64,000 nucleotides of DNA from the NCBI GenBank assembly GCA_048320885.1, contig JBLWFJ010000001.1, positions 1,349,642-1,413,641 on the forward strand. The letters run 5' to 3'. Both the position numbers and the translations under genes were made by a program. Source of the stretch: Nannocystaceae bacterium ST9 (GTDB lineage: Bacteria > Myxococcota_A > Polyangia > Nannocystales > Nannocystaceae). The notes below the pieces were generated by a model. That model made no database searches. It saw only the letters and a list, made by a program, of their open reading frames with translations, and was not told the origin of the DNA. Of this stretch, positions 3,968 through 52,961 are shown piece after piece. The number at the start of each line of letters is the position of its first letter. The first letter of the stretch is position 1.

Positions 3968-3976
3968 GCTCCAATA

Positions 3977-4462: not shown

Positions 4463-4495
4463 GGGAGGCCGGCGGACGGCCTCCCTATTTCAGCC

Positions 4496-10797: not shown

Positions 10798-10888
10798 GAA
10801 TCTCTCGCGCGATCGCGATCCGACATGACGGAAGCACCTCGGTCGGGCGCCCATCGGGGCACCCAACCGAGGCTACGGGGACACCAGA

Positions 10889-11191: not shown

Positions 11192-11199
11192 GGCGTTGA

Positions 11200-11490: not shown

Positions 11491-11699
11491 CGATCTCCCT
11501 CTTCGGAGGTCCCCAGACACCCCGATCGCCGTCGACAATATAGACCACTCGGTTTCACTTCAAGACAATTTTTCATTGCCATCGAAGTGCCATCCGAGGG
11601 TATGGCTGGTCTCTCGACCAAATCGCCGGTGCCCATGCCTGCATTGCTACTGGCCCAAAGTACGCGATTCGCCGAGTCGCATGTTCGCGGAATGGTCGG

Positions 11700-11790
11700 T
11701 CGAATGTCGGTCGAATGTCGGTCGATTGGTCGGTCGATTGGTCGTTCGAACATCACGGTTCGAACATCACGATTCGACTCTCACCTGACG
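11700..11790. repeat. Three consecutive short tandem duplications in the AT-richer acyl-CoA dehydrogenase upstream region
   Basis: ggtcgaatgtc x2, ggtcgattggtc x2, gttcgaacatcacg x2, read directly. Candidate operator or regulatory sites. Confidence 0.6.
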
Positions 11791-12023
11791 CGACTATTAC
11801 GAAAGACTATTGTGACACTCCATCGATGTGTCTCGCTCGCTATCGCTCGGCACCACCCTCGACGAGTGGGCCGCGAGGCCGTTCAGGCTCATGTCCTCGA
11901 TTCTGGCCTCCCGTTCAGCGCACGAGACGCTAGGCCCTCCAGCCACCGCGCAAGGGACGCGAATCCCCGAGGTCGTGTCCGGGCCGACCCCTGCGACGGC
12001 TCGCGCGGTCCAACCCGCCCCTC

Positions 12024-15930: not shown

Positions 15931-15969
15931 TTTTTGATCGATCACCACTGCCCAAGGCACGGCCCTGCC

Positions 15970-17682
15970 ATGCGACCCCTACTCACGATCTCTTCGTTAT
16001 CGACCCTCGCGCTCGGCCTCGGCCTCGCGCTCGCGCCCACGCCCGCCGACGCCTGCGGCGGGACCTTCTGCGACGGCGGCGGACCGACGGTGATGCCCGT
16101 CGATCAGACCGGCGAGAACATCCTGTTTTGGATCGATCACTCGGGCACGGAGCCGCACACCGAGGCGCACATTCAGATCCAGTACGAGGGCGAGGCGCAG
16201 GACTTCGCGTGGATCATCCCGGTCCAGCAGGTCCCCGAGGTCCTGGTCGGCAACCAGGCGCTCTTCGACAACCTGCTCGCCGCGACCGTCCCGACCTTCA
16301 CGATCACCACCACCAGCCAGACCTGCGACGACGGCTCGGTCGGGCTGTGTGCCGCGCGGGCCGAGGACAGCCAGTTCGCCGACGACGAGGCCGGTGACAT
16401 TGGCGGCGACGAAGGCGACACCGGCGACGGGACCGGCGGGCCCGAGATCCTCGATCGTGGGTTCGCGGGCGCCTTCGAGTACGTCGTGCTGACCGGCGAC
16501 TCCGTCCAGGAGATCGTCGACTGGCTCGACATGGCCGGCTACGCCCAGGACGACGACGCACCCCCGATCCTGCAAGAGTACCTCGACGACGACTTCGTGT
16601 TCGTCGCCGTCAAGCTGCGCGGCGGCGTCGACGTCGACGAGATCCATCCGCTCGCGATCCGCTACCCCGGCGTCGAGCCCTGCATCCCGATCAAGCTGAC
16701 CCGGATCGCCGCCGTCGACGACATGGCCATCCGCGCGTTCTTCCTCGGCGAGTCGCGGGCCGCCCCGATGAACTGGCCGCACGTGGTGCTCAACCCGGTC
16801 GCGTTCGATTGGGTCAACACCGCCAGCAACTACCTCGAGGTCGCCTCGCTGGCGATCGACGAGGCCGGCGGGCGAGCCTTCCTCACCGAGTACGCCGGCA
16901 TCGACGACATCGTCTCGACCAGCGGGGTCGACAGCCCGGCTTGGAACCCGAGCGCGTTCGAGGCGATCGAGCCGGTCGACGTCGTCGACGAGCTGACCAG
17001 CCAAGGCCTGGGCCTGACCTGCGACCCGTTCTCGAACGTGTGCAGCTTCGGCCACCCGCAGGTCGAGCCGCTGCTCGCCAAGTACCTGCCGGCCCCCGAT
17101 GGCGTGGACCCCTACGAATTCTGGGGCTCGCTCGCGTCCTACGAGGGCCTGATCGACCTCGCCGCCTGGTCGGGCACCGGCTTCGCCACCGACTTCGCCG
17201 AGCGGATCTCGACCCCGGGTCAGCACGCGATCGAGATGCTCGAGAGCGCCTCCTACCTGACCCGCCTGATGACCCTGCTCTCCCCGCACGAGATGATCGA
17301 GGACCCGACCTTCCACGAGACCGACTCGCTGCCCACGCTCGGCAACCAGTTCTCGGCCACGCGGACGATCGCCTGCGAGACCAACGACTGGGTCGACCTG
17401 CCCGACGAGCGCCAGGTCGCGCTGACCAACGGCAGCCTCTACCCCAGCATCGAGGGCATGCCCTTCGCCGAACGGATCGAGCAGATCCCGGCCATGGGCC
17501 CTGCCCAGATCACCACCGACAACCGCGCGACGATCGACGACCTGCTCGCCGACTGGAACGCCGGCAAGCTCTCGGGGCCCGAGCCCGGCTGCGCCGTCAC
17601 CCGCCTGCGGGCCGAGGCGCTGCTGACCATGCTCGCGCTGTTCGGGATCGCCGGGGCGACCCGCCGTCGGCGTCGGGGATGA
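15970..17682 (+). CDS. DUF2330-domain secreted protein, copy 2 (tandem paralog), with MYXO-CTERM-like tail
   Basis: MRPLLTISSLSTLALGLGLALAPTPADACGG...; C-terminus GCAVTRLRAEALLTMLALFGIAGATRRRRRG. Long blocks are nucleotide-identical to copy 1. Confidence 0.7.
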   Translation: MRPLLTISSLSTLALGLGLALAPTPADACGGTFCDGGGPTVMPVDQTGENILFWIDHSGTEPHTEAHIQIQYEGEAQDFAWIIPVQQVPEVLVGNQALFDNLLAATVPTFTITTTSQTCDDGSVGLCAARAEDSQFADDEAGDIGGDEGDTGDGTGGPEILDRGFAGAFEYVVLTGDSVQEIVDWLDMAGYAQDDDAPPILQEYLDDDFVFVAVKLRGGVDVDEIHPLAIRYPGVEPCIPIKLTRIAAVDDMAIRAFFLGESRAAPMNWPHVVLNPVAFDWVNTASNYLEVASLAIDEAGGRAFLTEYAGIDDIVSTSGVDSPAWNPSAFEAIEPVDVVDELTSQGLGLTCDPFSNVCSFGHPQVEPLLAKYLPAPDGVDPYEFWGSLASYEGLIDLAAWSGTGFATDFAERISTPGQHAIEMLESASYLTRLMTLLSPHEMIEDPTFHETDSLPTLGNQFSATRTIACETNDWVDLPDERQVALTNGSLYPSIEGMPFAERIEQIPAMGPAQITTDNRATIDDLLADWNAGKLSGPEPGCAVTRLRAEALLTMLALFGIAGATRRRRRG

Positions 17683-21844: not shown

Positions 21845-23515
21845 GTGCACGACCTCGTCTACGCCTTCGCGCTGCTCGCCGCAGCGCTCGCGCTGTCCTG
21901 GCCGCTCGGGCGAGCCATGGCCGCCATCGCCCAACCTCCACGCAGCCAGCCCGACCGGCTCGATCGCGCGATCGTCCGGGTGCTCGGACCGGCCGCGATC
22001 GCCGAGCAGACCTGGAAGAGCTACGCGCTCGCGCTGCTCGGGTTCAACGCGCTGATGTTCACGATCACCTACGCGATCTTGATCTTGCAGGGCTCGCTGC
22101 CGCTCAACCCGGCCGGCAAACCCGGGCTCGAGCCCTCGCTGGCGTTCAACACCGCGATGTCGTTCGCGACCAACACCAACTTGCAGCACTACTCCGGCGA
22201 GGTCGCGCTGTCCTACTTCTCGCAGCTGTTCGGGCTGACCTGGCTGCAGTTCGTGTCGGCCGCGACCGGCATCGCGGCGTTGGCCGCCATCGCGCGAATG
22301 CTCGGTCCGAGCGGCGCCGTCGGCAACTATGCCCGCGATCTGATCCGCTTCACCCTGCTGATCCTGCTGCCGCTCGCGCTGGTCGTCGGCGCCACGCTGA
22401 TCGTCGCCGGCACACCGATGACCTTCGCCGGGCCGGTCGAGCTGACCACGCTCGAGGGCGACTCGCAGACGATCGCTCGCGGACCGGTCGCGGCGATGGT
22501 CGCGATCAAGCAGCTCGGGACCAACGGCGGCGGCTACTTCGGCCCCAACAGCACGCACCCGCTCGAGAGCCCGAGCTTCTTCACCTGCTCGCTCGAGAAC
22601 CTGTCGATCCTCGTGGTCTCGATGGCCTGCCTGTGGATGTTCGGCCGACTGATCGGGCGGATGCGCGACGCCTGGCTGCTCTTCGCGGTCATGGCCGCGC
22701 TCTTCGTGGCCATGGTGATCCCGGCCGTGCTGCTCGAGGCCCAGCCCAACCCCGGCCTCGCCGATCTGCCGATCGTCGAAGCCCGCGGCAACCTCGAGGG
22801 CAAGGAGCTGCGCTTCGGCAGCGCGGCCGGCCCGGTCTGGGCGGTGACGACGACCGCGACCAGCAACGGCTCGGTCGCGGCCATGCACGACAGCCTCAAC
22901 CCGCTGACCGGGCTGCTGCCGATGATCGGCATGTGGCTCAACGTCAGCTACGGCGGCGTCGGGGTCGGGCTGATCGGCATGCTGCTCTACGTGGTCGTCG
23001 CGGTGTTCATCGCCGGGCTGATGGTCGGGCGCACGCCCGAGTATCTCGGGCGCAAGGTCGAGGTCCGCGAGATGAAGCTGGCCGCGCTGGCCTTGCTGCT
23101 GCATCCCTTGCTGATCCTCGGTGGCACCGCATTGTTCGTGGCCACGCCCCTCGGGACCGAGACCATGTCCAACCCGGGCAGCCACGGGTTCTCGCAGGTG
23201 CTCTACGAGATGAGCTCGGCCGCGGCCAACAACGGCTCGGGCTTCGAGGGCCTGGCCGACAACACCACGCCCTGGAACCTGATCACCGGGCTGTGGATGT
23301 TCCTCGGTCGCTACCTGCCGATCGTGCTGCCGCTTTCGATCGCGGCCTCGCTCGCCCGCAAGCAACGCGTACCCGAGAGCGCCGGCACGCTGCGAACCGA
23401 CTCGCCGACCTTCGCGCTGGTCCTGCTCGGCTGCGTGGTCCTGCTCGGCGCGCTGCTCTTTCTTCCCGCCGCCGTGCTCGGCCCGATCGCCGAACACCTG
23501 GAGATGACCCGATGA
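21845..23515 (+). CDS. kdpA: Potassium-transporting ATPase subunit A
   Basis: GTG start 14 nt after kdpF ([18 protein letters not shown]...). 557 aa with KdpA selectivity-filter-like repeats. Confidence 0.85.
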
Positions 23516-25572
23516 ACGAACCCATCACGCGGCGAGCGAAGACTCGCTCGTTGGTCACGCCCGAGCTGGCCCGCGCCGCGCTGCGCGAGTCGGTGATCAT
23601 GCTCGACCCCCGACGAATGGCCCGCAACCCGGTGATGTTCGTGACCGAGGTCGGGGCCCTGCTGAGCACGATCGCGGCCGCGCTCGCGCTCGGCTCGGGC
23701 GACGCCGGCTTCCCGATCACGATCTCGATCGTGCTGTGGCTGACGGTGCTGTTCGCCAACTTCGCCGAGGCGCTGGCCGAGGCGCGCGGCAAGGCGCAGA
23801 CCCAGGCGCTGCGAGCCACTCGCACGCAGACCGAGGCTCGTCGGCGGCGCGACGACGGCACGATCGAGTCGGTCGGGTCGACCGAGCTGCGCAAGGGCGA
23901 CGTGATCGTCGTCGCGCTCGGCGAGCTGATCGCCGCCGACGGCGAGATCATCGAGGGCGTGGCCAGCATCGACGAGTCGGCGATCACCGGCGAGTCGGCG
24001 CCGGTCGTGCGCGAGGCCGGAGGTGATCGCTCGGGCGTGACCGGAGGCACCCGCGTGCTCTCGGACTCGATCGTCGTGCAGGTCACCGCCGCGCCCGGCG
24101 ACTCGTTCCTCGATCGAATGATCGCGCTGGTCGAGGGCGCGCAGCGGCAAAAGACGCCCAACGAGATCGCCCTGACCGTCACGCTCGCCGGGCTCACGCT
24201 GGCGTTCTTGCTGGTCACGGTCTCGCTGGTCCCGATGGCCGCCTACTTCGACGCGACCATCGACATCCCGACCGCGGTCTCCCTGCTGGTCTGCCTGATC
24301 CCGACCACGATCGGCGGGCTGCTGGCGGCGATCGGGCTGGCCGGCATGGATCGGGCGTTGGCCGCCAACGTGCTGGCCAAGTCGGGCAAGGCGGTCGAGC
24401 TGGCCGGCGACATCGACACGGTCCTGCTCGACAAGACCGGCACGATCACCCGCGGTAACCGGCAAGCCACGCATCTGTATGCGGCCGGGACCTTCGAGGA
24501 GCGCGAGCTGGCCGAGGCCGCCATGTTGGCCTCGCTCGCCGACACGACCCCGGAGGGCCGCTCGATCGTCGGGCTCGGCGAGGGCCTGCTCGGGCGGCGG
24601 CCGAGCGAGCCGCTCGGGGCCAAGCCGATCAGCTTCTCGGCCCAGACCCGGCTCAGCGGGATCGACCTCGCCGAGGGCACGAGCATCCGCAAGGGCTCGG
24701 TCGACGCGATCGCCAAGTGGTTGATCGAGCATGGCAGCTCGCTGCCCGACGCGGTCCGCACGATGACCGAGGCGATCGGCCGCGAGGGCGCGACCCCGCT
24801 GGTCGTCGTGAGGGCGCGACCCGGCCAGGCCGCGCACACGCTCGGCGTGGTCCAGCTGACCGACGTGCTCAAGCCCGGGATCGCGGCTCGGCTCGCCCGC
24901 CTGCGCGCGATGGGCCTGCGCGTGGTCATGGTCACCGGCGACAACCCGCTGACCGCCAAGGCGATCGCCGGCAAGGCCGGGGTCGACGACTTCATCGCCG
25001 AGGCCACGCCCGAGGACAAGCTGGCCTACATCCGCCGCGAGCAGGCCGAGGGCCGGCTGATCGCGATGATGGGCGACGGGACCAACGACGCGCCCGCGCT
25101 CGCCCAGGCCGACATCGGCGTGGCCATGAACTCGGGCACCCAGGCGGCCAAGGAGGCCGGCAACATGGTCGATCTCGACAGCGATCCGACCAAGCTGATC
25201 GAGGTGGTCGAGATCGGCAAGCAGCTGTTGATGACCCGCGGCGCGCTGACGACCTTCTCGATCGCCAACGACGTCGCCAAGTACTTCGCGATCGTGCCGG
25301 CGCTCTTCGTCGCCGCGCTGCCGCAGCTGGCCGCGCTCGACGTGATGGCCCTCGGCTCGCCGCGCAGCGCGATCTTGTCGGCGGTGCTCTTCAACGCCAT
25401 CGTGATCCCGCTGCTGGTGCCGATCGCCCTGCGGGGCGTTCGCTACCGGCCCGAGGGCGCCGACAAGCTGCTGCGCCGCAACTTGCTGATCTACGGGCTC
25501 GGCGGGGTCGCGGCGCCCTTCGTCGGGATCAAGCTCTTCGACCTCGCGCTCGCGCTGATCGGGATGCCATGA
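23512..25572 (+). CDS. kdpB: Potassium-transporting P-type ATPase subunit B
   Basis: DKTGTIT phosphorylation motif, [20 protein letters not shown]. Start overlaps the kdpA stop (ATGA). Confidence 0.9.
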
Positions 25573-26153
25573 CCAGCTTCACGTCCACGCTTCGAATCCT
25601 CTCGGGTCTCACGCTCGGCACGCTCGCGCTGGTCGGCGCCTACGCGCTGATCTTGCTCGGCGTCGGGCTCGGCCTCGCGCCGGCGGCCGCCGAGGGCTCG
25701 CTGATCCGCGGGCCCGAAGGCGAGCTCGTCGGCAGTCGCCTGGTCGGCCAGTCGTTCACCGAGCCCGGCTACCTGTGGCCGCGGCCCTCGGCGGTCGACC
25801 ACGCCGCGGACGCGGCCGGCGGCAGCAACCTCGCGGCCAGCAACCCGGCCCTGCGCGAGCGAGTGCTCGCCGACCTCGCTCGCCATGCGGCCAGCGACGA
25901 GCGACCGATCCCCGCCGATCTCGTGACCGCGTCGGGCTCGGGCCTCGACCCCGACATCACGCTGGCCGGCGCGCTCTACCAGGCCCCGCGGATCGCCGCC
26001 GCACGCCGGGTCGATCGCCACGAGATCGAAGAGCGGCTGCGCTCGCTCGCCCACACGCCCAACCCCTGGTCGCCGCCGCTGATCAACGTGCTCGAGACCA
26101 ACCTCGAGCTCGATCGCACCTTCGGCGCGCTCCCGACGAGGCCGGCGGAATGA
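25569..26153 (+). CDS. kdpC: Potassium-transporting ATPase subunit C
   Basis: 194 aa, N-terminal [12 protein letters not shown] motif. ATGA overlaps on both sides. Confidence 0.85.
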
Positions 26154-27292
26154 GCCCGACGGATCGCGCCGAGGACTTCCTCGCGCTGGTTCGTCGGGCT
26201 CGCCAAGGTCGGCTCAAGCTCTTCCTCGGGCCCGCGCCCGGCGTCGGCAAGACCTACCGGATGCTGCAAGAGGCCCAGCAACTGAGCGCGACCGGGGTCG
26301 ACGTGGTCATCGGCGTGATCGAGACCCACGGACGACCCGAGACCGCGGCGCTGATCGAGGGGCTCGAGCAGGTGCCGATGCGGCGGATCGAGTATCGCGG
26401 GGTCGGCCTCGACGAGCTCGACCTCGACGGCGTCCTCGCCCGCGCGCCCGAGATCGCGCTGATCGACGAGCTCGCGCACACCAACGCGCCCGGCAGCCGC
26501 AACCGCAAGCGTCACCAGGACGTGCTCGATCTGCTCGAGGCCGGGATCCACGTGTTCGCCACGCTCAACGTCCAACACCTCGAGAGCCTCAACGACCTGG
26601 TCTCGCGCAGGGTCGGCGTGCAGGTCCGCGAGACCGTGCCCGACGTGTTCCTGCGCCGCGCCGATCAGATCGTCAACATCGATCTGCCGGCCGAGGATCT
26701 GCTCACCCGCCTGCGCGCGGGTCGGATCTATCCGCTCGAGCGGGTCGAGCGGGCGCTCGCCAACTTCTTTCAGGCCGGCAAGCTCGAGAGCCTGCGCGAG
26801 CTGGCCTTGCGCGAGGTCGCCGAGTCGATCGAGCGGGCCCAGCAGCGCGAGCGCGAGGTCAGCGGAGAGCGTGTGGGCCGAGTCGCGCTCAGTCGGCTGA
26901 TGGTCGGGCTCTCGAGCTCGCCGAACGCCGCGGCGCTGCTGCGTCGCGCGTCGCGACTGGCCGGTCGACTCAACGCGCATTGGTTCGCGGTCCATGTCCA
27001 GACCCGACGCGACGCGCCCGATCGGATCAGCGCGACCGACCAGCGCCGCCTGTTCGAGGCCCAACAGCTGGCGGTCGACCTCGGCGCGGAGGTCCAGGAG
27101 CTCGAGAGCGACGACGTGATCGCGGCGCTGATCGACTTCGCCAGCGCGCATGGGGTCTCGGACATCGTGATCGGGGCTCCGCCGCCGACCCACCCGATCC
27201 TGGCGTGGTTCACCCGCAGCGTCGCCCGGCGAATGCTCGACCACGCCAACCGCTTCAACCTCCACGTGCTGGCCACGGAGGTCTCGCCATGA
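26150..27292 (+). CDS. kdpD: Stand-alone KdpD N-terminal sensor domain + Usp domain protein (no TM or kinase domains)
   Basis: RGRLKLFLGPAPGVGKTYRMLQEAQQLSATGVDVVIGVIETHGRPETAALIEGLE... matches KdpD-N (PF02702) closely, then a Usp-like domain. Ends 380 aa in, with ATGA overlap into the next kinase gene. Confidence 0.8.
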   Translation: MSPTDRAEDFLALVRRARQGRLKLFLGPAPGVGKTYRMLQEAQQLSATGVDVVIGVIETHGRPETAALIEGLEQVPMRRIEYRGVGLDELDLDGVLARAPEIALIDELAHTNAPGSRNRKRHQDVLDLLEAGIHVFATLNVQHLESLNDLVSRRVGVQVRETVPDVFLRRADQIVNIDLPAEDLLTRLRAGRIYPLERVERALANFFQAGKLESLRELALREVAESIERAQQREREVSGERVGRVALSRLMVGLSSSPNAAALLRRASRLAGRLNAHWFAVHVQTRRDAPDRISATDQRRLFEAQQLAVDLGAEVQELESDDVIAALIDFASAHGVSDIVIGAPPPTHPILAWFTRSVARRMLDHANRFNLHVLATEVSP

Positions 27293-29109
27293 CGCTGCGG
27301 ATCAAGCTCTTGCTCGCCCAGCTGCCCATGCTGCTGGCGACCGCGCTGACGATCGCGGTCGCGATGCTGGCCGCGCGTCGCTTGGGCGGCGAGCCGGACG
27401 CGATCATCGAGGAGAACTTTCGCAGCTTCGATGCCGCACGCGCGATGCTCACCGCGCTCGAGCGGATCGACGCCGAGCTGACCCGCGGCGCGCTGGTCGG
27501 TGAGCCGCCCGATCCCGCGAGCGTCGACGCGGCGGTGGCCGAGTTCGAGGCGCCGCTGGCGATTCAGCGGGACAACGTCACCGAGCCCGGCGAGCACGAG
27601 GCGACCGCCGAGCTGGTCGCGGCTTGGCAGCGCTACCGAGCCGAGCTGCCGCTCGAGCCCGGCGCGAGCCTCGAGGATCACCGCGCCCGCTCCGACCAGC
27701 TGCGCGATCGAATCGAGGTGATCTTCGCGATCAACCGCGCTGGCATGCGCAGCAAGGCGGACGCGGCTCGCGTCGAAGCTCGCCGCGAGACGATCGTGAT
27801 CGCGGCGACCGGACTGATCGCGCTGGCCGTCGCGCTGCCCTTCGGCGTCGTCCTGGTCCGTCGACTGCTGCGCCCGGTCAAGGTCATGGCCGCGACCGTG
27901 GCCCGGCTCGCCAGCGGCGACTTCGACGTCCGAGTTCGGCTCGAGGGTCGCGGCGACGACGAGGTCCATCGCTTGGCGCTCGCGTTCAACGAGATGGCCG
28001 AGCGGCTCGGGGCCTATCGCGCCAGCTCGCTCGGTGATCTGCTCGAGGCCAACCTGCGCATGCAGTCGGTCGTCGACAGCCTGCCCGAGGCCGTGCTGGT
28101 CTGCGACACCGCCGGGGTCGTGGTTCAGGCCAATGTTTCGGCGCATCGGCTCTTCGGTGAGCCGACCAGCCTCGCGCGCCTGCCCAGCTCGATCGCCGGC
28201 CCGGTCCGCGCGGTGTTCGATCGCGTGGTCCGAACCGAGCGGGCCAGCGAGTGGGCCGGGATCGCCGACGCGCTGGCCTTCCCGCGCGGGACCGAGGTCG
28301 TGTGGCTGGCCGTCGGCGCGACCCCGGTGCTGCGTGACCAACGGTTGGCCGCGGTCACGCTCGCGCTGCGCGACGTCAGCCAGGCCCGTCGACTCGAGGG
28401 CTTTCGCGGCGACCTGGTCTCGGCCGCCGCCCACGAGCTGCGGACCCCGCTGACCTCGCTGCACATGGCCGTGCATCTGTGCCTGGAGGAGGCCGCCGGC
28501 CCACTCGACGATCGCCAGAAGGATCTGCTGACGGCCGCGCGCTCCGACTGCGAGCGCCTGCAGTCGGTCGTCGACGAGCTCCTCGATCTCGCGCGGGCCG
28601 AGGCCGGCACGATCCGGCTCGAGCTGCGCCCGCTGGTCGTGCAGTCGGTCCTGCACGAGGCGCTCGCCCGCCACGAGCTCGACGCCGAGCGCCAGGGCGT
28701 CACGATCGTCGTGGTCACGCCCGAGGCCGGCCTGCGCGTGCTCGCCGATCGCTCGAGGCTCGCGCAGGTGTTCGACAACCTGATCACCAACGCGCTGCTG
28801 CACGCCGCGGGCGTCCGGCGGATCGAGCTGGGCGCCGAGCAGGTCGGCGAGCGAGTCCACTTCCGGGTCGACGACGACGGCCCCGGCATCCCGCTCGAGC
28901 TTCGGCCCCGCGTGTTCGACAAGTTCGTGCGCGGACCCGCGACCGAGGCCGAGGGCACCGGGCTCGGGCTCAGCATCGTTCGCGATCTCGTGCGAGCGCA
29001 TCGCGGCGAGGTCGGGGTCGACGACGCGGCGATCGGCGGCGCGCGAGTGTGGTTCGAGCTGCCGACCGCCGCGGACGGCGGACCGATCCACGACATGCTC
29101 GCGCCGTGA
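27289..29109 (+). CDS. Sensor histidine kinase (TM sensor, HAMP, PAS, HisKA, HATPase) coupled to kdpD-N
   Basis: 606 aa, N-terminal TM-flanked sensor domain, then AAAHELRTPLTSL H-box, N/G boxes. Confidence 0.8.
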   Translation: MTLRIKLLLAQLPMLLATALTIAVAMLAARRLGGEPDAIIEENFRSFDAARAMLTALERIDAELTRGALVGEPPDPASVDAAVAEFEAPLAIQRDNVTEPGEHEATAELVAAWQRYRAELPLEPGASLEDHRARSDQLRDRIEVIFAINRAGMRSKADAARVEARRETIVIAATGLIALAVALPFGVVLVRRLLRPVKVMAATVARLASGDFDVRVRLEGRGDDEVHRLALAFNEMAERLGAYRASSLGDLLEANLRMQSVVDSLPEAVLVCDTAGVVVQANVSAHRLFGEPTSLARLPSSIAGPVRAVFDRVVRTERASEWAGIADALAFPRGTEVVWLAVGATPVLRDQRLAAVTLALRDVSQARRLEGFRGDLVSAAAHELRTPLTSLHMAVHLCLEEAAGPLDDRQKDLLTAARSDCERLQSVVDELLDLARAEAGTIRLELRPLVVQSVLHEALARHELDAERQGVTIVVVTPEAGLRVLADRSRLAQVFDNLITNALLHAAGVRRIELGAEQVGERVHFRVDDDGPGIPLELRPRVFDKFVRGPATEAEGTGLGLSIVRDLVRAHRGEVGVDDAAIGGARVWFELPTAADGGPIHDMLAP

Positions 29110-45685: not shown

Positions 45686-47092
45686 TCAAGCCGCGCGCAC
45701 GAAGGTCCGGCTCTTTCGCCGCCGATAGCGAAGCCGGCAAGGATGCCGCGGCCCGACCAGCAGACGCGAGTAGTCCGGCTCGTAGACGTCGCCCTCGACC
45801 AGCTCGAAGTCGAAGTTGCGCAGCACGTGGCTCCACAGCGCGCGCAGCTGCAGCTGGGCGAACACGATGCCCATGCAGCGGTGCCGGCCGGCGCCGAAGG
45901 GGATGAACGCCATCGGGTTGGCCTTGTCCTCGCTGCGCGGGGCCAGGAAGCGGGTCGGGTCGAAGCGGTGCGGCTCGGGGAACACCTCGGCGATGTAGTG
46001 CGAGACCGCGGGCGACGAGAAGATCATCGAGCCATGCGGGAAGTCGTAGCCGGCGTACTCGAAGTCGTTCATCACCTTGCGCATCATGATGATGATCGGC
46101 GGGTACATGCGCAGGACCTCCTTGATCGTCGCTTCGAGCTTGGGCATCGAGCGCAGATCGTCGAGGGTCAGGTCGTCGCGGTTGCCGAGCAGCTCGGCCT
46201 GCTCGGCGCGCAGCTCGGCCGCCCACTCGGGGTGCTGGGCGAGCAGGATGCCCGTCCACGAGAAGGTCACGCCGCTGGTGTGATGGCCGGCGAACATGAT
46301 CGTCAGCAGCAGGCCGGTGATCTCGTCTTCGCTGAGCGCTCGGCCGTCCTTGTAGTGGGCCTCCATCAGCGACTGCAACATGTCGTCGCCGACGTGGCCG
46401 CGAGCGCGGCGGTCGGCGACGATGCCCTTGATCAGCTCGACCAGGCGCACGCGGGCCTGATCGCGGCGGCGAAACGCCGGGACCAGCGGCAGGTCGGGGT
46501 TCAAGAACGCCAGCACGTTCAGCCCGCCCTCCATCTCCTGATAGAGCTTGGCGAACTCGCCCGAGAGCTTCTGGCGAAACTCGTTGCCGAGCAGCGAGCG
46601 GCTCGACGTGTAGATCGTCAGCTCGTTGCCGACGTCGTACATGTCGACGATCCCCGAGTCCTGCCAGCTCCCGAAGTACTGCTCGGCCTCCTCGATGAAG
46701 CCCTGCGCGTAGGTCCGCATCCGCTGCTCGCGGAGCGCCTCGTGGAAGAAGCCCAGCTGCTCGCGCATGATCGGCGGCGGCGCGTCGTAGGCGATGCCCT
46801 TGCCGAAGATCGGCGTCATCAGCCGGTACGACTCGGCCTGGCTGACGTCCTCGTCGCTCATGCGGAAGAACTTCTCTTGCGCCTTGGGTCCCGTCATCAC
46901 GATCGCGTCGGCGCCAGGCAGCGCCATCGTGAACAGGTCGCCGTAGAAGGCTCGCCCGCGCTCGAGCAGGCGGACCGGGTTGCTGCGCATCTCGAGCGCG
47001 TGGCCGAGCAGCGGAAGCCCGCCTTCGAGCCGCGGCGGCAGCTTGGCGGCCCCCTTCGAGGGTTGGGACGGAGCGCTGAAGAGCGTGACCAT
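45686..47092 (-). CDS. cyp51: Cytochrome P450, CYP51-like (sterol 14-alpha-demethylase homolog)
   Basis: MTPIFGKG, ELTIYTSS, MFAGHHTSG, EVLRMYPPIIIMMR, IPFGAGRHRCMG and a C-terminal ...CRLRYRRR closely parallel Mycobacterium CYP51 as I recall it. Confidence 0.8.
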   Translation of the reverse strand: MVTLFSAPSQPSKGAAKLPPRLEGGLPLLGHALEMRSNPVRLLERGRAFYGDLFTMALPGADAIVMTGPKAQEKFFRMSDEDVSQAESYRLMTPIFGKGIAYDAPPPIMREQLGFFHEALREQRMRTYAQGFIEEAEQYFGSWQDSGIVDMYDVGNELTIYTSSRSLLGNEFRQKLSGEFAKLYQEMEGGLNVLAFLNPDLPLVPAFRRRDQARVRLVELIKGIVADRRARGHVGDDMLQSLMEAHYKDGRALSEDEITGLLLTIMFAGHHTSGVTFSWTGILLAQHPEWAAELRAEQAELLGNRDDLTLDDLRSMPKLEATIKEVLRMYPPIIIMMRKVMNDFEYAGYDFPHGSMIFSSPAVSHYIAEVFPEPHRFDPTRFLAPRSEDKANPMAFIPFGAGRHRCMGIVFAQLQLRALWSHVLRNFDFELVEGDVYEPDYSRLLVGPRHPCRLRYRRRKSRTFVRAA

Positions 47093-47180
47093 GGCGCGTC
47101 GACGCTACCCGCTCGCATGCTGGCTCGAAAGCCGCGCGAGCGCAGGTGTGGCCGGGATCACCGGGGGCCGCTCACGCGCA

Positions 47181-48374
47181 TCACGGCTCGTCACAGCGCG
47201 GATCGAGCACCGGGACTGGTTGCACCTGCGTGATGCTCGGGTCCAGCCCAATCACGTCTTCGCCTCCATAGCCAAGACCGCCGCTCCAACAGTATACGGA
47301 ACCCGACTCCCCCAGAGCGCACGCGGAGCCATAACCAACGCTGATCGTCACGGCCGGCTCCGGCAAGGGAATGGGATCGACCACGAGCGGATCGAGAACA
47401 TCTTCGCCCCATGGATCGAGTGGCGTCGCTACCGGAGCGCCCCCCCAGCAACGGACCGAGCCATCGGCCGCGAGTAGGCACGCAGCACCTGTCCCCACGT
47501 CGACCTGCTCGACGCCTTGGTCGAGGGCGAGCGGCGGCAACGAAGCAGGTGTTTCATCGTCACCGATGTTACCTCCACCCGCCCCTCGACCCACCAATCG
47601 CTCGTCGCCCCAACAAGTGAAAGATCCCCCTTCCAGACGAGCGCATGCCGCCAACGTTCCAACGCTGACCTCGAGCGCGGCAGTGGGCATCTCGATCAGC
47701 TTGGGCGTCGATGACTCCAAGCTGCCGGGAACCCCCAGGATTCCACATGGTTCGTCCAGCTCACATTGTGGATCCGACCCCCAACAAGCCACTTGACCAT
47801 CGTCCAACACCGCACAAGCGCTATCGAAGCCGAGCGCCACTCCGATCACCGCCCCCGGTAACACCACCGTCGAGGGCTCGTCGTCGTCGCCCAGAGGTTC
47901 GTTGGTTTCTACGCCGACGATGCTCCGGTTTCCCCAACAGCGAAGCGTGCCGTCGTCCAACACCGCGCACGCACCGGAGTGTCCGACGGCGACGCTGGCG
48001 ACCGGTCGTCCGAAGTCGAAGCCGTCGATGACGGGGTCACCCTCGTACTTCGAGAACGGCTCCAGACAGCCGAGCCTGCCCTGTGCACGGCCGCACACGT
48101 CCAGTCCAACCGATACCGAGTCGAGCTCGAGATTCAGCCACTCGGCCATCCATGCCGGTTCGTCGTCACCGATGATCTCGCCATCGAGTTGCTCGCCCCA
48201 ACAGCGGACGCGTCCGGTCGACGCGCGAGCGCAGGTCCGGAGATCGGCGACGGCCGTCTCGACCTCGACGATCTCGACGCACTCCTGCGCGGGATCGAAG
48301 TCGTCGGGCGGCACGAGAGGCTCCGGCCCACATGCGGGGCACAGGAGCACGATGAATGGCAAGCGACGTGTCAC
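47181..48374 (-). CDS. RCC1-repeat (beta-propeller) secreted protein
   Basis: Repeats of G..H.CA.LDDG.V.CWG. Assigned GTG start overlaps the upstream stop (GTGA 48371-48374). Confidence 0.6.
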   Translation of the reverse strand: MTRRLPFIVLLCPACGPEPLVPPDDFDPAQECVEIVEVETAVADLRTCARASTGRVRCWGEQLDGEIIGDDEPAWMAEWLNLELDSVSVGLDVCGRAQGRLGCLEPFSKYEGDPVIDGFDFGRPVASVAVGHSGACAVLDDGTLRCWGNRSIVGVETNEPLGDDDEPSTVVLPGAVIGVALGFDSACAVLDDGQVACWGSDPQCELDEPCGILGVPGSLESSTPKLIEMPTAALEVSVGTLAACARLEGGSFTCWGDERLVGRGAGGGNIGDDETPASLPPLALDQGVEQVDVGTGAACLLAADGSVRCWGGAPVATPLDPWGEDVLDPLVVDPIPLPEPAVTISVGYGSACALGESGSVYCWSGGLGYGGEDVIGLDPSITQVQPVPVLDPRCDEP

Positions 48375-49390
48375 TTGCACTTGTCGTCGTCGGCCACGCA
48401 GGCGAAGCGCACGTGCAGATGATCGTCGTGCTTGGGCTCGTGACGCACGATCCCGTGCTTGGCCCACTGCCCGTCGGGGTACTGAAACACGTCGACCAGC
48501 TTCTTCTTCGACCAGCCGCGCTTGCGGGCCTCGGCGTAGAGCCAGCCTTGCAGCTCGTAGTCGACGAACACCTTCTCGACCCCGCCCGGCTTGCCGGCGG
48601 TGGTCAGCAGGGCCTCGAGCAGCGCCCAGGTCGCGGCGGCGTCGAAGCTCGACTTGGTCGCGACCACGAACTCCTGCGGGTACTCGGCGGGCAGCTCGCG
48701 ATAGAAGAGCCCGAGGTCGATGTCGCGGCCCGACTGGTGCGAGGCGTGGCCCGAGAGCGCGCCGCCGTCCTCGTCGGACAGGTCGCCGATCGCCAGGCGA
48801 TGGGCCTTGGGGAAGCGCTCGTGCACGGCCGCGATCGCGTTGAGCGTGTGGTCGATCAGGTGGGCGGCGGCGTAGGTCCGCTCGACCCGTCGCCGGTAGT
48901 ACTGGCTCGAGCGCGGCAGTCGAGTCGGCTTGCGCAAGTAGCCATGATCGGGCCGGCCGATGCTCTGCCCGGCGATCGCTCGGATCGTCCGCTCACTCGA
49001 GCCCGGCAAGCGCAGCGTCTGGCCAACGCGGATCAGGCTGCCCTCGATGTCGTTGAGCTCGCGCAGCTCGTCGACGCTGGTCGCGTGGCGCTCGGCGATG
49101 CTGGCCAAGGTGTCGCCCGACTTGACCACGTACTCGCGCGAGCTCGCCCCGCCTCCGCCCTCGCAGCTCGACACGTCGAGCTCGCGCCCGACCACGAGCG
49201 GCTCGTCGGGCTCGAGCTCGTTGGCCTCGCGCAGGCTGCTGATCGAGCAGCCGTGCTCCTGCGCCAGGTCCCAGAGCGTGTCGCCCGGCTGAACCACGAC
49301 CGTGCGGCTCGCCCCCCGAGCGGGCTCGATCCCGACCGCCAGCGACAGCCAGCAGGCGCTCAGGATGCAAATCGGGCGAGACCAGCGCAT
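48371..49390 (-). CDS. LysM-LysM + M74-type penicillin-insensitive murein endopeptidase (MepA-like)
   Basis: Internal Met MRWSRPICILSACWLSLAVG signal, two LysM motifs (VVQPGDTLWDLAQEHG, YVVKSGDTLASIAERH), HASHQSGRDIDL metal motif. Confidence 0.6.
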   Translation of the reverse strand: MRWSRPICILSACWLSLAVGIEPARGASRTVVVQPGDTLWDLAQEHGCSISSLREANELEPDEPLVVGRELDVSSCEGGGGASSREYVVKSGDTLASIAERHATSVDELRELNDIEGSLIRVGQTLRLPGSSERTIRAIAGQSIGRPDHGYLRKPTRLPRSSQYYRRRVERTYAAAHLIDHTLNAIAAVHERFPKAHRLAIGDLSDEDGGALSGHASHQSGRDIDLGLFYRELPAEYPQEFVVATKSSFDAAATWALLEALLTTAGKPGGVEKVFVDYELQGWLYAEARKRGWSKKKLVDVFQYPDGQWAKHGIVRHEPKHDDHLHVRFACVADDDKCK

Positions 49391-49502
49391 CGATCTCCAC
49401 CCTCCGCCATGTCGCGCGAGCGAGCAAGTTTTCGGCGTCAGCGAGGGTCGAGTCGGCGACCTGTGGTCCAAGCCATGCCCACGCATGCTAGGTTTGGAGG
49501 GC

Positions 49503-50246
49503 ATGAGCGTGGGCACCCGGCGTCCGCGACTGCTCGACGGTCATCCGCCCGAGCTGCTGGTCTACGACGAGGACACCAACTGTCCCTACCTCGACGCCAA
49601 GATCGCCCGCCTGCCGATGCGCCTGCCGACCCGGCCGCTGACGGCCGCCGAGTTCAGCGAGCGCCTGCACGTCGGCGATCGTCGGCAGGGGCTCGTGCTC
49701 TACCGGCCCTCGTGCGCCGAGTGCAACGCCTGCGAGGCGATCCGGCTCGACATCCAGAGCTTCCAGCCGAGCAAGACCCAAAAGCGAATCTTCAAGCGTG
49801 GCGAGGCCGAGCTGCGCGTCGAGATCGGCGAGCCGCGGCTGAGCAGCGAGAAGGTCCAGCTCTACAACAAGCACAAGGTCGGCCGCGAGCTGATGGGTGA
49901 AGGCGACCCGATCGACGAATCGGGCTACGGCGCGTTCCTGGTCGACTCGTGCACCGAGAGCTTCGAGATCCGCTACCTGTTCGGCGAGCGGCTGATCGGC
50001 GTGGCGATCGTCGACCGGGGCACCGACGCGCTCTCGGCCGTGTACACCTACTTCGATCCCGAGTTCGGCCAGCTCAGCCCGGGCGTGTACTCGATCATGA
50101 AGCAGCTCGACCTGTGCCGGCAGTGGGGGCTTCGCTGGCTGTATCTCGGGCTCTACGTGCGCGACTGCTCGTCGATGGCCTACAAGGCCAAGTACTTGCC
50201 CCACGAGCGGCTGCGCGAGGGCAAGTGGGTGCTCTTCGACGAGTAG
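49503..50246 (+). CDS. bpt: Arginyl/leucyl-tRNA-protein transferase (Bpt/ATE1-like)
   Basis: CPYL...RRQG...YRPSCAECNACEAIR fits the Bpt family. SD GGAGGG before the ATG. Confidence 0.65.
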   Translation: MSVGTRRPRLLDGHPPELLVYDEDTNCPYLDAKIARLPMRLPTRPLTAAEFSERLHVGDRRQGLVLYRPSCAECNACEAIRLDIQSFQPSKTQKRIFKRGEAELRVEIGEPRLSSEKVQLYNKHKVGRELMGEGDPIDESGYGAFLVDSCTESFEIRYLFGERLIGVAIVDRGTDALSAVYTYFDPEFGQLSPGVYSIMKQLDLCRQWGLRWLYLGLYVRDCSSMAYKAKYLPHERLREGKWVLFDE

Positions 50247-50258: not shown

Positions 50259-52961
50259 GTGTCTGGCTTGGTCCTGCCCGACTTCGTCTTGCCCTTCTTC
50301 GCGATCGATCGTGACTCGATCGCGGTCGTCGGCGGCAAGGCGGCCAAGCTCGGCGCGATGGCTCGAGCCGGCTTCCCGGTCCCGCCCGGCTGCTGCGTGA
50401 CCACCGAGGCGTTTCGTCGCTTCATGATGATCTCGCCCGCGCTCGCCGGGCTGTTCGAGCGGCTCGCCGCGCTCGCACCCGACGACCTCCCGGCCGTCCG
50501 CGAGCTCGGCGAGGCCCTGCGCTCGCACCTGCTCGGGCTGCCGATCCCGAGCGAGGTCGAGGTCGCGATCGTCGAGGCCTGGCGCGCGCTCGGGGACTCG
50601 CACGCCTACGCGGTCCGCTCGAGCGCGACGGCCGAGGATCTGCCCGGAGCCTCGTTCGCCGGCCAGCAAGACACCTACCTCGCCGTGGTCGGCCGCGCGG
50701 CGCTGCTCGAGCGCGTGCGCGCCTGCTGGGCCTCGCTCTTCACCGATCGGGCGATCCTCTACCGCGCCCGGCAGGGCTTCGATCACCGCCGAGTCGAGCT
50801 CGCGGTGGTGATCCAGCGGATGGTCCGCCCGCAGACCTCGGGCATCCTGTTCACCGCCCACCCGATCGACGGACGCCGACACGTGCTGACGATCGACGCC
50901 GGGTTCGGGCTCGGCGAGGCGCTGGTCTCGGGCCTGGTCAACGCCGATCTCTACGAGGTCGACAAGCGCTCGGCGACGATCCTGCGCAAGACCATCGCCG
51001 ACAAGCGGCTCGCGATCGTGCCGCTCGCCGAGGGCGGCACCGAGCAGGTCGAGCTCGACGAGACCCGCCGGCACGCCCAGGTGCTCACCGACGAGCAGAT
51101 CCTCGCGCTCGCCGAGCTCGGTCGGCGGATCGAGGCCGACTTCGGCGAGCCGCAGGACATCGAGTGGTGCATCGAAGACGGCGAGCTGTGGTTGGTTCAG
51201 GCCCGGCCGATCACCACGCTCTATCCCCTGCCGGCGCATCCGCTCGACGACCAGCTGCGGCTCTACGTCTCGCTCGGTCACGTCCAGGTCATGACCGACG
51301 TCATGACCCCCTTCGCCCATGGGATCTGGAAGCGCTTCATCCCGATCGATCGCGATCCGCAGGGGCGCGCGCGAGTGCTGCACTCGGCCGGCGGTCGACT
51401 CTTCATCGACCCCAGCGACTTGCTCCGGCTGCCGCGGCCCGCCGCGTTGATGCCCGAGGTGCTCGGCCTGGTCGATCCGCGGACCGCCGAGGCGGTCCGG
51501 CAGATCGTCGCGCGGCCCGAGTTTCGAGCGGCGCCGCGGCGCGTCGGTCGAATGCGGCTCGCTCACGGGATCGCGTGGTTCGCCCAGCGGATCATCCCGC
51601 GCGTGCTGTGGCGGCTCTGGTTCACGCGCACGCTCGGCATCGCCGCTCGCACGCGCGCGCGCATGGACAGGTTGCTCGAGCAGACCCGCGCTCGCCTCGA
51701 CGACGAACGAGTCGCGCCCGATGCCGGCGCCCGCCTGCGCGAGGCGATCGCGACGGTCTCGCGGCTCTTCGTCGACATGTTCTTCCCGATCGTGCCTTCG
51801 ATCATGGCCGGGGGCTTGGCCGGCGTGCTGCTGCGCAAGCTGACCCGCGTGTCCGACGACGACCTCGCCGCGCTCAAGCGCGGGCTCGAGGGCAACGTGA
51901 CCACGCAGATGGACCTGCGGATCGGCGATCTGGCCGACCTCGCCCGCGAGTCGAGCGAGCTGGTCGCCTGGCTGCGCGCGCAGGACCACCCCACCCGCGC
52001 GGACCTGGCCGCGCGCGCCGACACTGGCCCGCTGCTGGTCGCGCTCGATCGCTTCTTGGCCGAGTACGGCATGCGCGGCGGCTCGGAGATCGACATCGGC
52101 CGACCTCGCTGGCGCGACGATCCCAGCCTGCTCTTGCAGGTGCTGCGAGGCAACGTCGCCCGCGAGCAGGCCGGGGCCCACCGCGTGCATCACCAACGCA
52201 TGACACTCGAGGGCGAGGCCGCGGCCGCGCGGGCGGTCGCGTCGGCCCGGCCCTGGGCGCGGCCGCTGGCGCGTCGACTGGTCCGGGTCTACCGCGATCT
52301 CTCGGCCCTGCGCGAGCACCCGAAGTTTCAGCTCGTCCGCGTGCTCGGGTTGATCCGCGAAGCCGCGCTGGCCTACGCCGCCGAGTTGGTCGCGGCCGGC
52401 CGACTCGAGCGCGCCGACGACATCTGGATGCTCGAGATCGACGAAGTGCTCGCGACGATCGCCGCGGATCCGAACGACGATCCACTGCCGCTCGCGACGA
52501 TCGTCGGCGAGCGCCGAGCCGCGTGGGCCCACTTCGCCCGGCTCGCGCCGCCGCGGGTGATGACCAGCGAAGGCGAGATCGTCGGCGGCGAGCAGGTCCG
52601 CACCGATCTACCCGCGGGCGCCCTGCATGGCACCGCGGCCTCGGCCGGCGTGGTCGAGGGCCTCGTCCGGGTCGTCCTCGATCCCCACCGCGAGGTCCTG
52701 CACGCCGGCGAGATCCTGGTCGCGCCCTTCACCGATCCCGGCTGGACCCCGCTCTTCATCAACGCCGCCGGACTGATCATGGAGGTCGGCGGATTGATGA
52801 CCCACGGCTCGGTCGTCGCCCGCGAGTACGGGATCCCGGCCGTGGTCTCGGTCGACGCCGCGACCACGCGCCTGCGCACCGGCCAGCGCGTGCGCCTCGA
52901 CGGCACCCGGGGAATCATCGAGGTGATCGACGACCCCGAGTCGAAGTCGACCGAGCGCTAG
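50259..52961 (+). CDS. PEP-utilizing enzyme family protein (PpsA / rifampicin-phosphotransferase-like, 900 aa)
   Basis: N-terminal PEP/pyruvate-binding ATP-grasp (GGKAAKLG), C-terminal mobile His domain (GGLMTHGSVVAREYGIPAVV). GTG start 12 nt after bpt. Confidence 0.75.
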   Translation: MSGLVLPDFVLPFFAIDRDSIAVVGGKAAKLGAMARAGFPVPPGCCVTTEAFRRFMMISPALAGLFERLAALAPDDLPAVRELGEALRSHLLGLPIPSEVEVAIVEAWRALGDSHAYAVRSSATAEDLPGASFAGQQDTYLAVVGRAALLERVRACWASLFTDRAILYRARQGFDHRRVELAVVIQRMVRPQTSGILFTAHPIDGRRHVLTIDAGFGLGEALVSGLVNADLYEVDKRSATILRKTIADKRLAIVPLAEGGTEQVELDETRRHAQVLTDEQILALAELGRRIEADFGEPQDIEWCIEDGELWLVQARPITTLYPLPAHPLDDQLRLYVSLGHVQVMTDVMTPFAHGIWKRFIPIDRDPQGRARVLHSAGGRLFIDPSDLLRLPRPAALMPEVLGLVDPRTAEAVRQIVARPEFRAAPRRVGRMRLAHGIAWFAQRIIPRVLWRLWFTRTLGIAARTRARMDRLLEQTRARLDDERVAPDAGARLREAIATVSRLFVDMFFPIVPSIMAGGLAGVLLRKLTRVSDDDLAALKRGLEGNVTTQMDLRIGDLADLARESSELVAWLRAQDHPTRADLAARADTGPLLVALDRFLAEYGMRGGSEIDIGRPRWRDDPSLLLQVLRGNVAREQAGAHRVHHQRMTLEGEAAAARAVASARPWARPLARRLVRVYRDLSALREHPKFQLVRVLGLIREAALAYAAELVAAGRLERADDIWMLEIDEVLATIAADPNDDPLPLATIVGERRAAWAHFARLAPPRVMTSEGEIVGGEQVRTDLPAGALHGTAASAGVVEGLVRVVLDPHREVLHAGEILVAPFTDPGWTPLFINAAGLIMEVGGLMTHGSVVAREYGIPAVVSVDAATTRLRTGQRVRLDGTRGIIEVIDDPESKSTER

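Follow-up and report, generated by a model that had tools for sequence, protein, structure and literature searches.

A sterol 14-alpha-demethylase (CYP51) orthologue of Nannocystaceae bacterium ST9 and its gene neighbours

Does the cytochrome P450 gene that stands in a same-strand string with genes for a murein endopeptidase and an RCC1-repeat protein in Nannocystaceae bacterium ST9 encode a true sterol 14-alpha-demethylase (CYP51), and do its neighbours share in that function? In the window analyzed here (a stretch of DNA of 64 kb), positions 45686-49390 are filled by three minus-strand genes. These encode a LysM-LysM-Peptidase_M74 protein (339 aa, 48371..49390; MFV8750067.1), which is a MepA-like penicillin-insensitive murein endopeptidase, an RCC1-repeat (beta-propeller) putative lipoprotein (397 aa, 47181..48374; Pfam RCC1_2), and a soluble, unfused P450 of 468 aa, the product of cyp51 (45686..47092; Pfam p450, E 1.6e-68; MFV8750065.1). 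The ORFs and Pfam domains confirm the three same-strand genes and the coordinates that an earlier note on this DNA had given them, and the junctions are as it described: the M74 stop codon overlaps the GTG start of the RCC1 gene as GTGA (48371-48374), and 88 bp (47093..47180) lie between the RCC1 stop and the ATG of the P450. An exact look-up paired the P450 with MFV8750065.1 and the M74 protein with MFV8750067.1 of ST9, each without a single difference, and MFV8750066.1 is contained within the RCC1 ORF; the NCBI names agree with the M74 and RCC1 domain assignments, and the proteins of the locus as a whole correspond to MFV8750064-67. A literature search found no publication on Nannocystaceae ST9.

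Assignment of the P450 to CYP51

The ranking of scores, the sequence identity, the signature motifs and the clade placement together lead us to conclude that the P450, as judged from its sequence, is a true CYP51 rather than a generic P450, as the earlier note had proposed. In a phmmer search of the PDB, bacterial, protist, animal and fungal CYP51s or their close relatives take the top 56 places (216-404 bits, full-length matches), one of them (9wat) being named merely 'Cytochrome P450', and the best clearly non-CYP51 matches, CYP170A1 (3dbg) and CYP120 (2ve3), score only about 140 bits. Over about 440 aligned residues each, the protein is 44.2% identical to the CYP51 of M. capsulatus, 42.3% to the eukaryotic CYP51 6q2c and 42.5% to M. 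tuberculosis CYP51B1, all three values lying above the 40% identity that delimits a family in P450 nomenclature. Solved CYP51 structures are matched at 1e-120, and the fold can therefore be regarded as settled.

The motifs that distinguish CYP51s are likewise present. The B'-helix motif SYRLMTPIFGKGIAYD is found in the protein, and the B' helix/B'C loop signature (Y..[FLI]..P.FG.[GN]V.[YF]D), described as sterol-contacting (PMC7947880), takes the form S-Y89-R-L91-M-T-P-I-F96-G-K-G-I-A-Y102-D, aligning with Y79/I81/F92 of the M. capsulatus enzyme and Y76/F78/F83/F89 of that of M. tuberculosis. Helix I carries AGHHTS (F-A-G-H270-H271-T272-S), which corresponds to H259-H260-T261 in the M. capsulatus enzyme and to H259-T260 in that of M. 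tuberculosis and holds the -H-T-(S/T)- triad of CYP51-specific proton delivery (PMC7947880). Both the heme-thiolate motif FGAGRHRC406MG (F..G...C.G) and the K-helix EVLR (E..R) were found, so that the marker and catalytic residues comprise Y89, L91, Y102, H271-T272 and C406. Two of these, L91 and Y102, match the 'L/Y' markers that Table 1 of PMC7947880 gives for E. salina, N. exedens and P. pacifica. The gene has a GC3 of 0.94 and is conserved under purifying selection (dN/dS 0.11-0.19).

The closest match in a scan of genome contigs, among which ST9 is not represented, is a Nannocystaceae MAG sequence that is 93% identical, and the protein is 78% identical to the CYP51 of E. salina and 76% to that of Pseudenhygromyxa. 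Comparison with CYP51 sequences, which the earlier note had suggested as a check, places it within the Nannocystaceae CYP51 clade in a neighbor-joining tree made up of CYP51s, with no outgroup from another P450 family; a non-CYP51 P450 for rooting was sought across all the loci retrieved and none was found. The enzyme is a known one in a known clade, that of the sterol-making marine myxobacteria (Nannocystaceae).

Sterol background and probable role

The earlier note had called bacterial sterol synthesis rare and mostly confined to Myxococcota, methanotrophs and a few others. In this lineage CYP51 is not rare: every member of the Nannocystaceae that has been cultured and sequenced is reported to possess a lanosterol-type Osc together with proteins for C-14 and C-4 demethylation, vertically inherited (bioRxiv 10.1101/2024.11.01.621555). 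E. salina produces cholesterol, with C-14 demethylation preceding that at C-4, from sterol genes dispersed in its genome (PMC10202945). A CYP51 without pathway neighbours is therefore to be expected. About 48 called genes were scanned with Pfam (some short or uncalled ORFs lie outside the scan), and together with the Pfam tables of syntenic relatives this detected no squalene epoxidase, oxidosqualene cyclase or ferredoxin in the 64-kb window, in agreement with the earlier note; the genes found there belong to Kdp, TRAP transporter, two-component, PTS-EIIA and PEP-synthase-like types or are hypothetical. That the pathway and the redox partner are located elsewhere, as the note had also supposed, fits the published picture of Nannocystaceae.

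We consider it very probable that the locus as a whole is explained by a CYP51 orthologue belonging to a scattered sterol pathway, with unrelated neighbours and an RCC1 gene inserted in the ST9 lineage. The enzyme would be a soluble class-I P450 whose electrons come from a ferredoxin and a ferredoxin reductase encoded separately from it. Its reaction would be a three-step oxidation of the 14-alpha-methyl group on lanosterol-type sterols, to the alcohol, to the aldehyde, and finally by release of formate with formation of a new 14,15 double bond. We infer this substrate and redox partner; orthology, together with the 14-demethylated intermediates of E. salina (PMC10202945), suggests the three-step removal, and the family-level literature suggests that the rest of the pathway is present in ST9. 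CYP51 would then supply one step of a pathway that, in Nannocystaceae, is encoded at scattered places in the genome.

A CYP51-family protein could instead have been recruited to a non-sterol substrate, a role raised for bacteria that do not produce sterols, e.g., mycobacteria (PMC7947880), and the 64-kb window does hold no sterol gene or ferredoxin. We regard such recruitment as very unlikely here, as the protein falls inside a clade in which every cultured member has Osc and is a sterol producer, its substrate-contact and proton-relay signatures are intact, with the L/Y markers also seen in E. salina, Nannocystis and Plesiocystis, which produce sterols, the gene is under strong purifying selection, and dispersed pathway genes are normal in E. 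salina.

MFV8750065.1, which NCBI labels just 'cytochrome P450', can safely be renamed sterol 14-alpha-demethylase (CYP51), and ST9 joins those Nannocystaceae for which production of 14-demethylated sterols is predicted. The L/Y markers and the lanosterol-type Osc of the family predict an animal- or fungal-like order of demethylation, C-14 before C-4, as in E. salina. Beyond annotation the significance is slight.

The RCC1 insertion and the gene order

The upstream gene of the string encodes a protein with an N-terminal signal peptide, two LysM domains above the Pfam cut-offs and a Peptidase_M74 domain (PF03411; 61.8 bits against a gathering cut-off of 25, profile positions 1-193 of 240). Its best NCBIfam match is the MepA model at 60 bits, far short of the 272-bit equivalog cut-off, and we therefore treat it as a member of the family rather than as a strict MepA equivalog. 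Ten related contigs, whose P450s are at least 88% identical, carry an orthologue of 339-341 aa upstream of cyp51, and in all of these CYP51 follows M74 directly, without RCC1.

The RCC1 ORF is an exact indel of 1,194 bp with GTGA at both ends. By blastn and junction alignment, window positions 47179-48372 have no counterpart in four related loci (L001, L004, L005 and L006), where the flanks abut, and the gene is missing from six further contigs (L019-L024) as well. Its GC3 of 0.69-0.71 stands against 0.91-0.94 in the neighbours, its codon usage is atypical, and the ORF is not called by the codon model. RCC1_2 repeats are clearly present (PF13540; 86.2 bits against a cut-off of 22), whereas the whole-domain RCC1 model PF25390 stays below its cut-off (87 versus 150 bits). 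Repeated ..AC..L.DG...CWG.. units, an N-terminal signal and an 'xxCGP' lipobox are common to the protein and its homologues P0122 and P0123; this conservation of signal and lipobox points to the GTG at 48374 as the start, in preference to the one annotated by NCBI, which lies 20 codons further downstream. A homologue search returned just two relatives above 50% identity, and the closest homologue is found at another locus, with unrelated neighbours, in a sister MAG whose cyp51 locus has no RCC1; there it overlaps a low-GC3 upstream gene, start on stop, as TGATG.

Among the contigs compared, the alignments indicate that RCC1 is an insertion in the ST9 lineage only, and we suggest that it would have entered ORF-exactly, directly after the stop codon of M74 and ahead of the old spacer that had separated M74 from cyp51. 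That the gene arrived as a bare ORF cassette, with neither flanking DNA nor a promoter, is a further claim to which we give little credence; if true, it could represent an undescribed spread of envelope beta-propeller genes via stop-codon insertion, borrowing the translational coupling of a host gene. The alternative to such an arrival is microhomology-mediated deletion in the other lineages, which would call for several independent losses on the present tree, in which the close-in branching is barely resolved.

The 88-bp spacer is the retained ancestral M74-cyp51 spacer. Across nine loci its alignment contains the conserved blocks GGTGATC..G.CCACAG and TTTCGA-N17-TAGCGT, the latter some 10 nt ahead of the ATG; conserved hexamer-like blocks are separated by variable sequence, and they possibly constitute a promoter of cyp51's own. 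RNA structure in the spacer is not significant (z -0.54) and covariation is only weak, and a terminator hairpin considered for it was therefore dropped. A scan of 45200-49800 for sigma-70 promoters and intrinsic terminators returned no sites, although its E. coli-type consensus is uninformative for a myxobacterium of 69% GC, and an Rfam search of 43000-50000 at a permissive threshold gave a single chance-level match. The transcription units of the locus are likewise putative.

Could M74, the RCC1 lipoprotein and CYP51 nevertheless form a functional operon, coupling sterol synthesis to the remodelling of the cell wall or to functions of the envelope? The three genes share a strand, a GTGA overlap and an 88-bp gap, with no terminator predicted between them, and the adjacency of M74 and cyp51 is kept in about ten related contigs. 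These relatives, however, share 84-90% DNA identity, so that common gene order is expected from descent alone, and conservation of order beyond shared descent was not found: the M74-CYP51 adjacency is limited to one shallow clade, at about 80% protein identity the neighbours of cyp51 are BtpA and patatin, and in E. salina, Pseudenhygromyxa, L007 and more distant loci the neighbours differ and no M74 adjoins. RCC1, for its part, is seen in ST9 only, its insertion left intact the cyp51 spacer with the promoter-like blocks, and its homologue in the sister MAG adjoins unrelated genes. We therefore hold a functional operon to be highly improbable. The arrangement that the earlier note had called an unusual combination is not conserved, with RCC1 missing from the ten related contigs and M74-CYP51 confined to the shallow clade; judged by synteny, the string is not a functional unit and the neighbours of CYP51 are incidental. 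The LysM-M74 and RCC1 proteins would be unrelated envelope proteins, M74 being an ancestral neighbour within the shallow clade, and in Nannocystaceae the gene neighbourhood is unusable for finding sterol or redox partners.

A further idea, that the P450 tailors two 17-aa peptides encoded just downstream in a RiPP system like those of the biarylitides or cittilin, drew on two tandem small ORFs on the same strand, starting 13 nt past the P450 stop, and on a weak NCBIfam match to the RiPP P450 ApyO (149 bits against a cut-off of 525), but it was rejected as having a negligible chance of being right, since the P450 is a conserved CYP51 orthologue, the peptides have no Tyr, Trp, His or Phe for P450 cross-linking, and the small ORFs are missing downstream of cyp51 in all relatives and lie about 6 kb away beside a glycosylase gene in one contig (L019).

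Strain-specific gene content is concentrated on both sides of cyp51, a hot spot with RCC1 at one flank and, at the opposite flank, DUF6734 plus small ORFs, RHS toxins or hypothetical genes; a literature search found no publication on DUF6734.

Comparison with known systems

Among the neighbours, the ST9 endopeptidase shares the Peptidase M74 domain with E. coli MepA but adds two LysM domains and scores far below the MepA equivalog cut-off, and the RCC1 protein shares its domain with bacterial RCC1_2/ATS1-like beta-propeller proteins, the ST9 version being a small lipoprotein. Members of the same enzyme family (41-45% identity) at three of the loci compared (L012, L013 and L015) have an SE + OSC reading frame immediately after cyp51, and cyp51-SE-OSC clusters are also found in Calothrix and S. 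amylolyticus according to the literature, whereas no other sterol gene accompanies cyp51 in the 64 kb of the ST9 window.

M. tuberculosis CYP51B1 (1e9x, 1x8v; 370 bits, 42.5%) has Y76, F83, H259, T260 and C394 aligned with identical ST9 residues but differs in its markers, F/F against L/Y in ST9; M. tuberculosis is not a sterol producer, and a putative operon there joins cyp51 to a ferredoxin (PMC7947880). The best solved-structure match is the CYP51fx of M. capsulatus (6mcw, 6mi0, 7jj1; PMC7947880), at 404 bits and 44% identity over the full length with His260-Thr261 conserved. That enzyme, however, is 551 aa long and carries a C-terminal ferredoxin domain, whereas the 468-aa ST9 protein has none fused or nearby, and the M. 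capsulatus markers are I81/F92 in place of L91/Y102.

The closest likeness is to the CYP51 of E. salina: the 78% identity extends over the full length, both proteins are unfused and soluble at 467-468 aa, and both have the L/Y markers and FGAGRHRCMG. The immediate neighbours differ, with the order BtpA, cyp51, patatin in E. salina against M74, (RCC1), cyp51 in ST9, but in both organisms cyp51 stands alone, away from other sterol genes (in ST9, within 64 kb).

Identity of the P450

On its sequence, the P450 at 45686-47092 (minus strand, 468 aa; NCBI MFV8750065, 'cytochrome P450') is a CYP51, and the earlier note's reading of it as such, and not as a generic P450, is supported by PDB ranking, identity, signature regions and tree. 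In a search of every PDB chain, CYP51s or close relatives take the first 56 places among distinct sequences, and all of these align along their full length: the M. capsulatus enzyme leads with 404 bits, followed by an obtusifoliol demethylase of amoebozoan or plant type (373 bits), M. tuberculosis CYP51 (370 bits), human CYP51 (about 314 bits), and trypanosomatid and fungal CYP51s (216-260 bits). The best-scoring other families, CYP170A1 and CYP120, stop at 140 bits. A P450 family is defined by a 40% identity rule, and identity to three reference CYP51s is above this value (44.2%, 42.3% and 42.5%). The best NCBIfam matches (albaflavenone and pentalenene P450s) carry no weight, because NCBIfam has no CYP51 model and the scores fall far under the cut-offs. 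The protein carries the two regions that Lamb et al. (PMC7947880) describe as CYP51 signatures, the B'-helix/B'C-loop motif S-Y89-R-L91-M-T-P-I-F-G-K-G-I-A-Y102-D and the helix-I triad A-G-H-H271-T272-S, as well as the heme ligand motif FGAGRHRC406MG. At the two 'phylum-marker' positions, numbered I81 and F92 after the M. capsulatus enzyme, it has L and Y, the animal/fungal-type pair that the same authors list for Enhygromyxa salina, Nannocystis exedens and Plesiocystis pacifica (PMC7947880).

The closest named homologues are from E. salina (78%; 'Lanosterol 14-alpha demethylase' in UniRef) and Pseudenhygromyxa sp. (76%), and dozens of metagenomic relatives carry the JGI label sterol 14-demethylase. 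The phylogeny that the earlier note proposed, here a neighbor-joining tree, places the protein inside an Enhygromyxa/Pseudenhygromyxa/Nannocystaceae CYP51 clade, clustered with three uncultured relatives (91-93% identity) and separate from gammaproteobacterial, actinobacterial and eukaryotic references. The dN/dS of 0.11-0.19 against five close relatives and the GC3 of 0.94 indicate that cyp51 is native and under purifying selection. That this CYP51, like that of mycobacteria, was recruited for something other than sterols is made unlikely by the Nannocystaceae clade, the marker residues and this selection; ST9 cyp51 is an already known enzyme, universal in its clade.

The RCC1 insertion and the gene order around cyp51

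Three minus-strand ORFs were correctly recognized in the earlier note, with Pfam agreeing on all three assignments and the junction sequence confirming the GTGA and short gap. A LysM-LysM-Peptidase_M74 gene (48371-49390; MFV8750067, penicillin-insensitive murein endopeptidase) is followed by an RCC1-repeat ORF (GTG start at 48374, ending at 47181; MFV8750066, RCC1 domain protein) and cyp51; by exact look-up, MFV8750064-MFV8750067 are four consecutive proteins of Nannocystaceae bacterium ST9. With codon usage learned from the window, a gene model starts the M74 gene at 49390, as in the earlier note, giving 339 aa, the length of its orthologues. Its stop codon overlaps the RCC1 start in the GTGA at 48371-48374; between the RCC1 stop and the P450 ATG lie 88 bp.

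The combination had been called unusual, but it reflects a strain-specific insertion beside an incidental neighbour. We compared ten independent related contigs (L001, L004, L005, L006 and L019-L024; P450s at least 88% identical to that of the window or to one another), and all ten have the order arginyltransferase (opposite strand), LysM-M74, cyp51, with an M74-to-cyp51 gap of 85-119 bp; none has an RCC1 gene. In blastn, window 47179-48372 (1,194 bp, the RCC1 ORF to the base) lacks a counterpart in the related loci, whose flanks abut there. The aligned junction in relatives reads ...AAGTGCAAGTGA|CCCGCGTGAGCG..., and the ST9 ORF sits directly 3' of the junction GTGA and closes with its own GTGA. 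Since ST9 nests among relatives without RCC1, in a tree whose close-in branching is barely resolved, one gain in its lineage is more parsimonious than several losses.

M74-cyp51 adjacency is kept in relatives at 84-90% DNA identity; where P450 identity drops to about 80% (in E. salina, Pseudenhygromyxa and the related locus L007), BtpA and patatin take the place of M74 as neighbours, so the adjacency is limited to a shallow clade, where shared order carries no functional information. Reading the same-strand genes as a functional M74-RCC1-cyp51 operon thus fails the synteny test, with RCC1 in 0/10 related contigs and M74 adjacent only in that clade. In the Enhygromyxa-like loci L002, L003 and L007 (around 9000-12400 and 1700-5000), a divergent BtpA-family gene flanks cyp51, and in L002 and L007 a patatin-like phospholipase gene, a lipid-related neighbour, lies directly 3' on the same strand.

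The 88-bp spacer is the old M74-cyp51 spacer, intact after the insertion. Two blocks are kept across nine loci, GGTGATC..G.CCACAG and TTTCGA-N17-TAGCGT; the second, in which the stretch between the hexamers varies, stops about 10 nt short of the cyp51 ATG. They are possibly a promoter of cyp51's own, which would give a near-leaderless transcript. No significant RNA fold was seen in the spacer. Consensus scans gave no promoter and no terminator, a result compatible with co-transcription of cyp51 with the upstream genes.

The RCC1 ORF has a GC3 of 0.69-0.71 vs 0.91-0.94 in its neighbours and is not called by the window-trained model. Only two relatives of its protein exceed 50% identity, and the closer one is from a MAG whose cyp51 locus lacks RCC1, the homologue lying at an unrelated locus. 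This closest homologue (53% identical) is found in contigs L016 (1162-3962) and L017 (226-3800) with a large upstream gene, of hemolysin-type Ca-binding in L017; the pair forms a low-GC3 island (0.60-0.71) next to a native gene of GC3 0.92. The two genes overlap start to stop as TGATG, as RCC1 and M74 in ST9 do through GTGA; the island and overlap suggest that genes of the RCC1 lineage are part of a pool that moves horizontally. With the GTG at 48374 as its start, the ST9 protein shares an N-terminal signal peptide and 'xxCGP' lipobox with the homologues P0122 and P0123, and is for this reason probably a lipoprotein. NCBI MFV8750066.1 (377 aa) leaves out the 20-residue signal and lipobox segment MTRRLPFIVLLCPACGPEPL (window 48314-48374). 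As this segment is conserved in both homologues, the GTG overlapping the M74 stop is the better start, the NCBI start being about 20 codons short.

The 3' flank and other features of the window

The 3' flank of cyp51 (43526-45685) is hypervariable among close relatives. In ST9 it holds a 277-aa hypothetical gene, a DUF6734 gene (MFV8750064) and small ORFs; elsewhere there is a hypothetical gene of 214-221 aa on the other strand (L004, L005, L021, L023), nothing before an MBL-fold gene (L020, L022), an RHS/YD-repeat toxin locus (L019), two hypothetical genes (L001) or dapB/dapA (L006). With the RCC1 indel, this makes cyp51 a conserved island between two variable sites; the ORF-exact, GTGA-bounded indel and the hypervariable flanks are the only, mildly unusual, features left.

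The small ORFs are two tandem 17-codon frames (45462-45672, minus strand) with the same N-terminus, MKTKTKIKAGSGLPTGQ and MKTKTKVKAGGLNVSGL; they begin 13 nt after the cyp51 stop and form a 157-bp tandem duplication. Their GC3 is 16/17, a strong Shine-Dalgarno sequence precedes the second, and behind each lies a GC-rich inverted repeat. Both are absent from the NCBI annotation and have no Rfam match. A third family member, MKTKTRVKAGVNRSGFD, also tandem, adjoins an HhH-GPD glycosylase gene in L019 (about 10-120, minus strand). The reading of the P450 as a RiPP-tailoring enzyme for these two ORFs is rejected, since it is a conserved CYP51, no aromatic residues occur in the peptides, and their family lies elsewhere in L019 and is absent 3' of cyp51 in other relatives.

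The window also encodes two tandem DUF2330 paralogues (14221-17682; 569 and 570 aa) and, at 21845-29109, a kdpABC operon after which KdpD comes in two pieces, a sensor/Usp part of 380 aa and a separate HAMP-PAS histidine kinase of 606 aa. A further gene, PEP-synthase/rifampicin-phosphotransferase-like (50268-52961), scores 953 bits against the PEP synthase subfamily cut-off of 945 without reaching the Rph cut-off.

Sterol pathway context and known systems

E. salina produces cholesterol and accumulates 4,4-dimethylcholesta-8,24-dienol, which shows that C-14 demethylation precedes that at C-4. According to a later survey, all cultured, sequenced Nannocystaceae have a lanosterol-type oxidosqualene cyclase, not co-localised with squalene monooxygenase, and vertically inherited C-14 and C-4 demethylation proteins (bioRxiv 10.1101/2024.11.01.621555), so in a genome of this family a cyp51 standing by itself is expected. 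As the earlier note had stated for squalene epoxidase, oxidosqualene cyclase and ferredoxin, Pfam scans of about 48 window genes found none of these, nor any ERG-type enzyme or Rieske/SdmA-like protein.

ST9 differs here from three distant loci in chromosome-level MAGs, one of Gammaproteobacteria and two of Paracoccaceae, where a squalene-epoxidase and oxidosqualene-cyclase frame comes right after cyp51 (L012:11122-14748, L013:11281-14787 and L015:11260-14766). In these ORFs FAD_binding_3 and squalene epoxidase domains precede SQHop_cyclase_N/C with a DCTAE motif in one unbroken frame about 1,170-1,200 codons long. This is apparently a natural fusion of squalene monooxygenase and oxidosqualene cyclase, of a kind not described in the literature searched. 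M. capsulatus CYP51fx is itself a ferredoxin-fused protein of 551 aa, whereas the ST9 CYP51 is unfused, at 468 aa.
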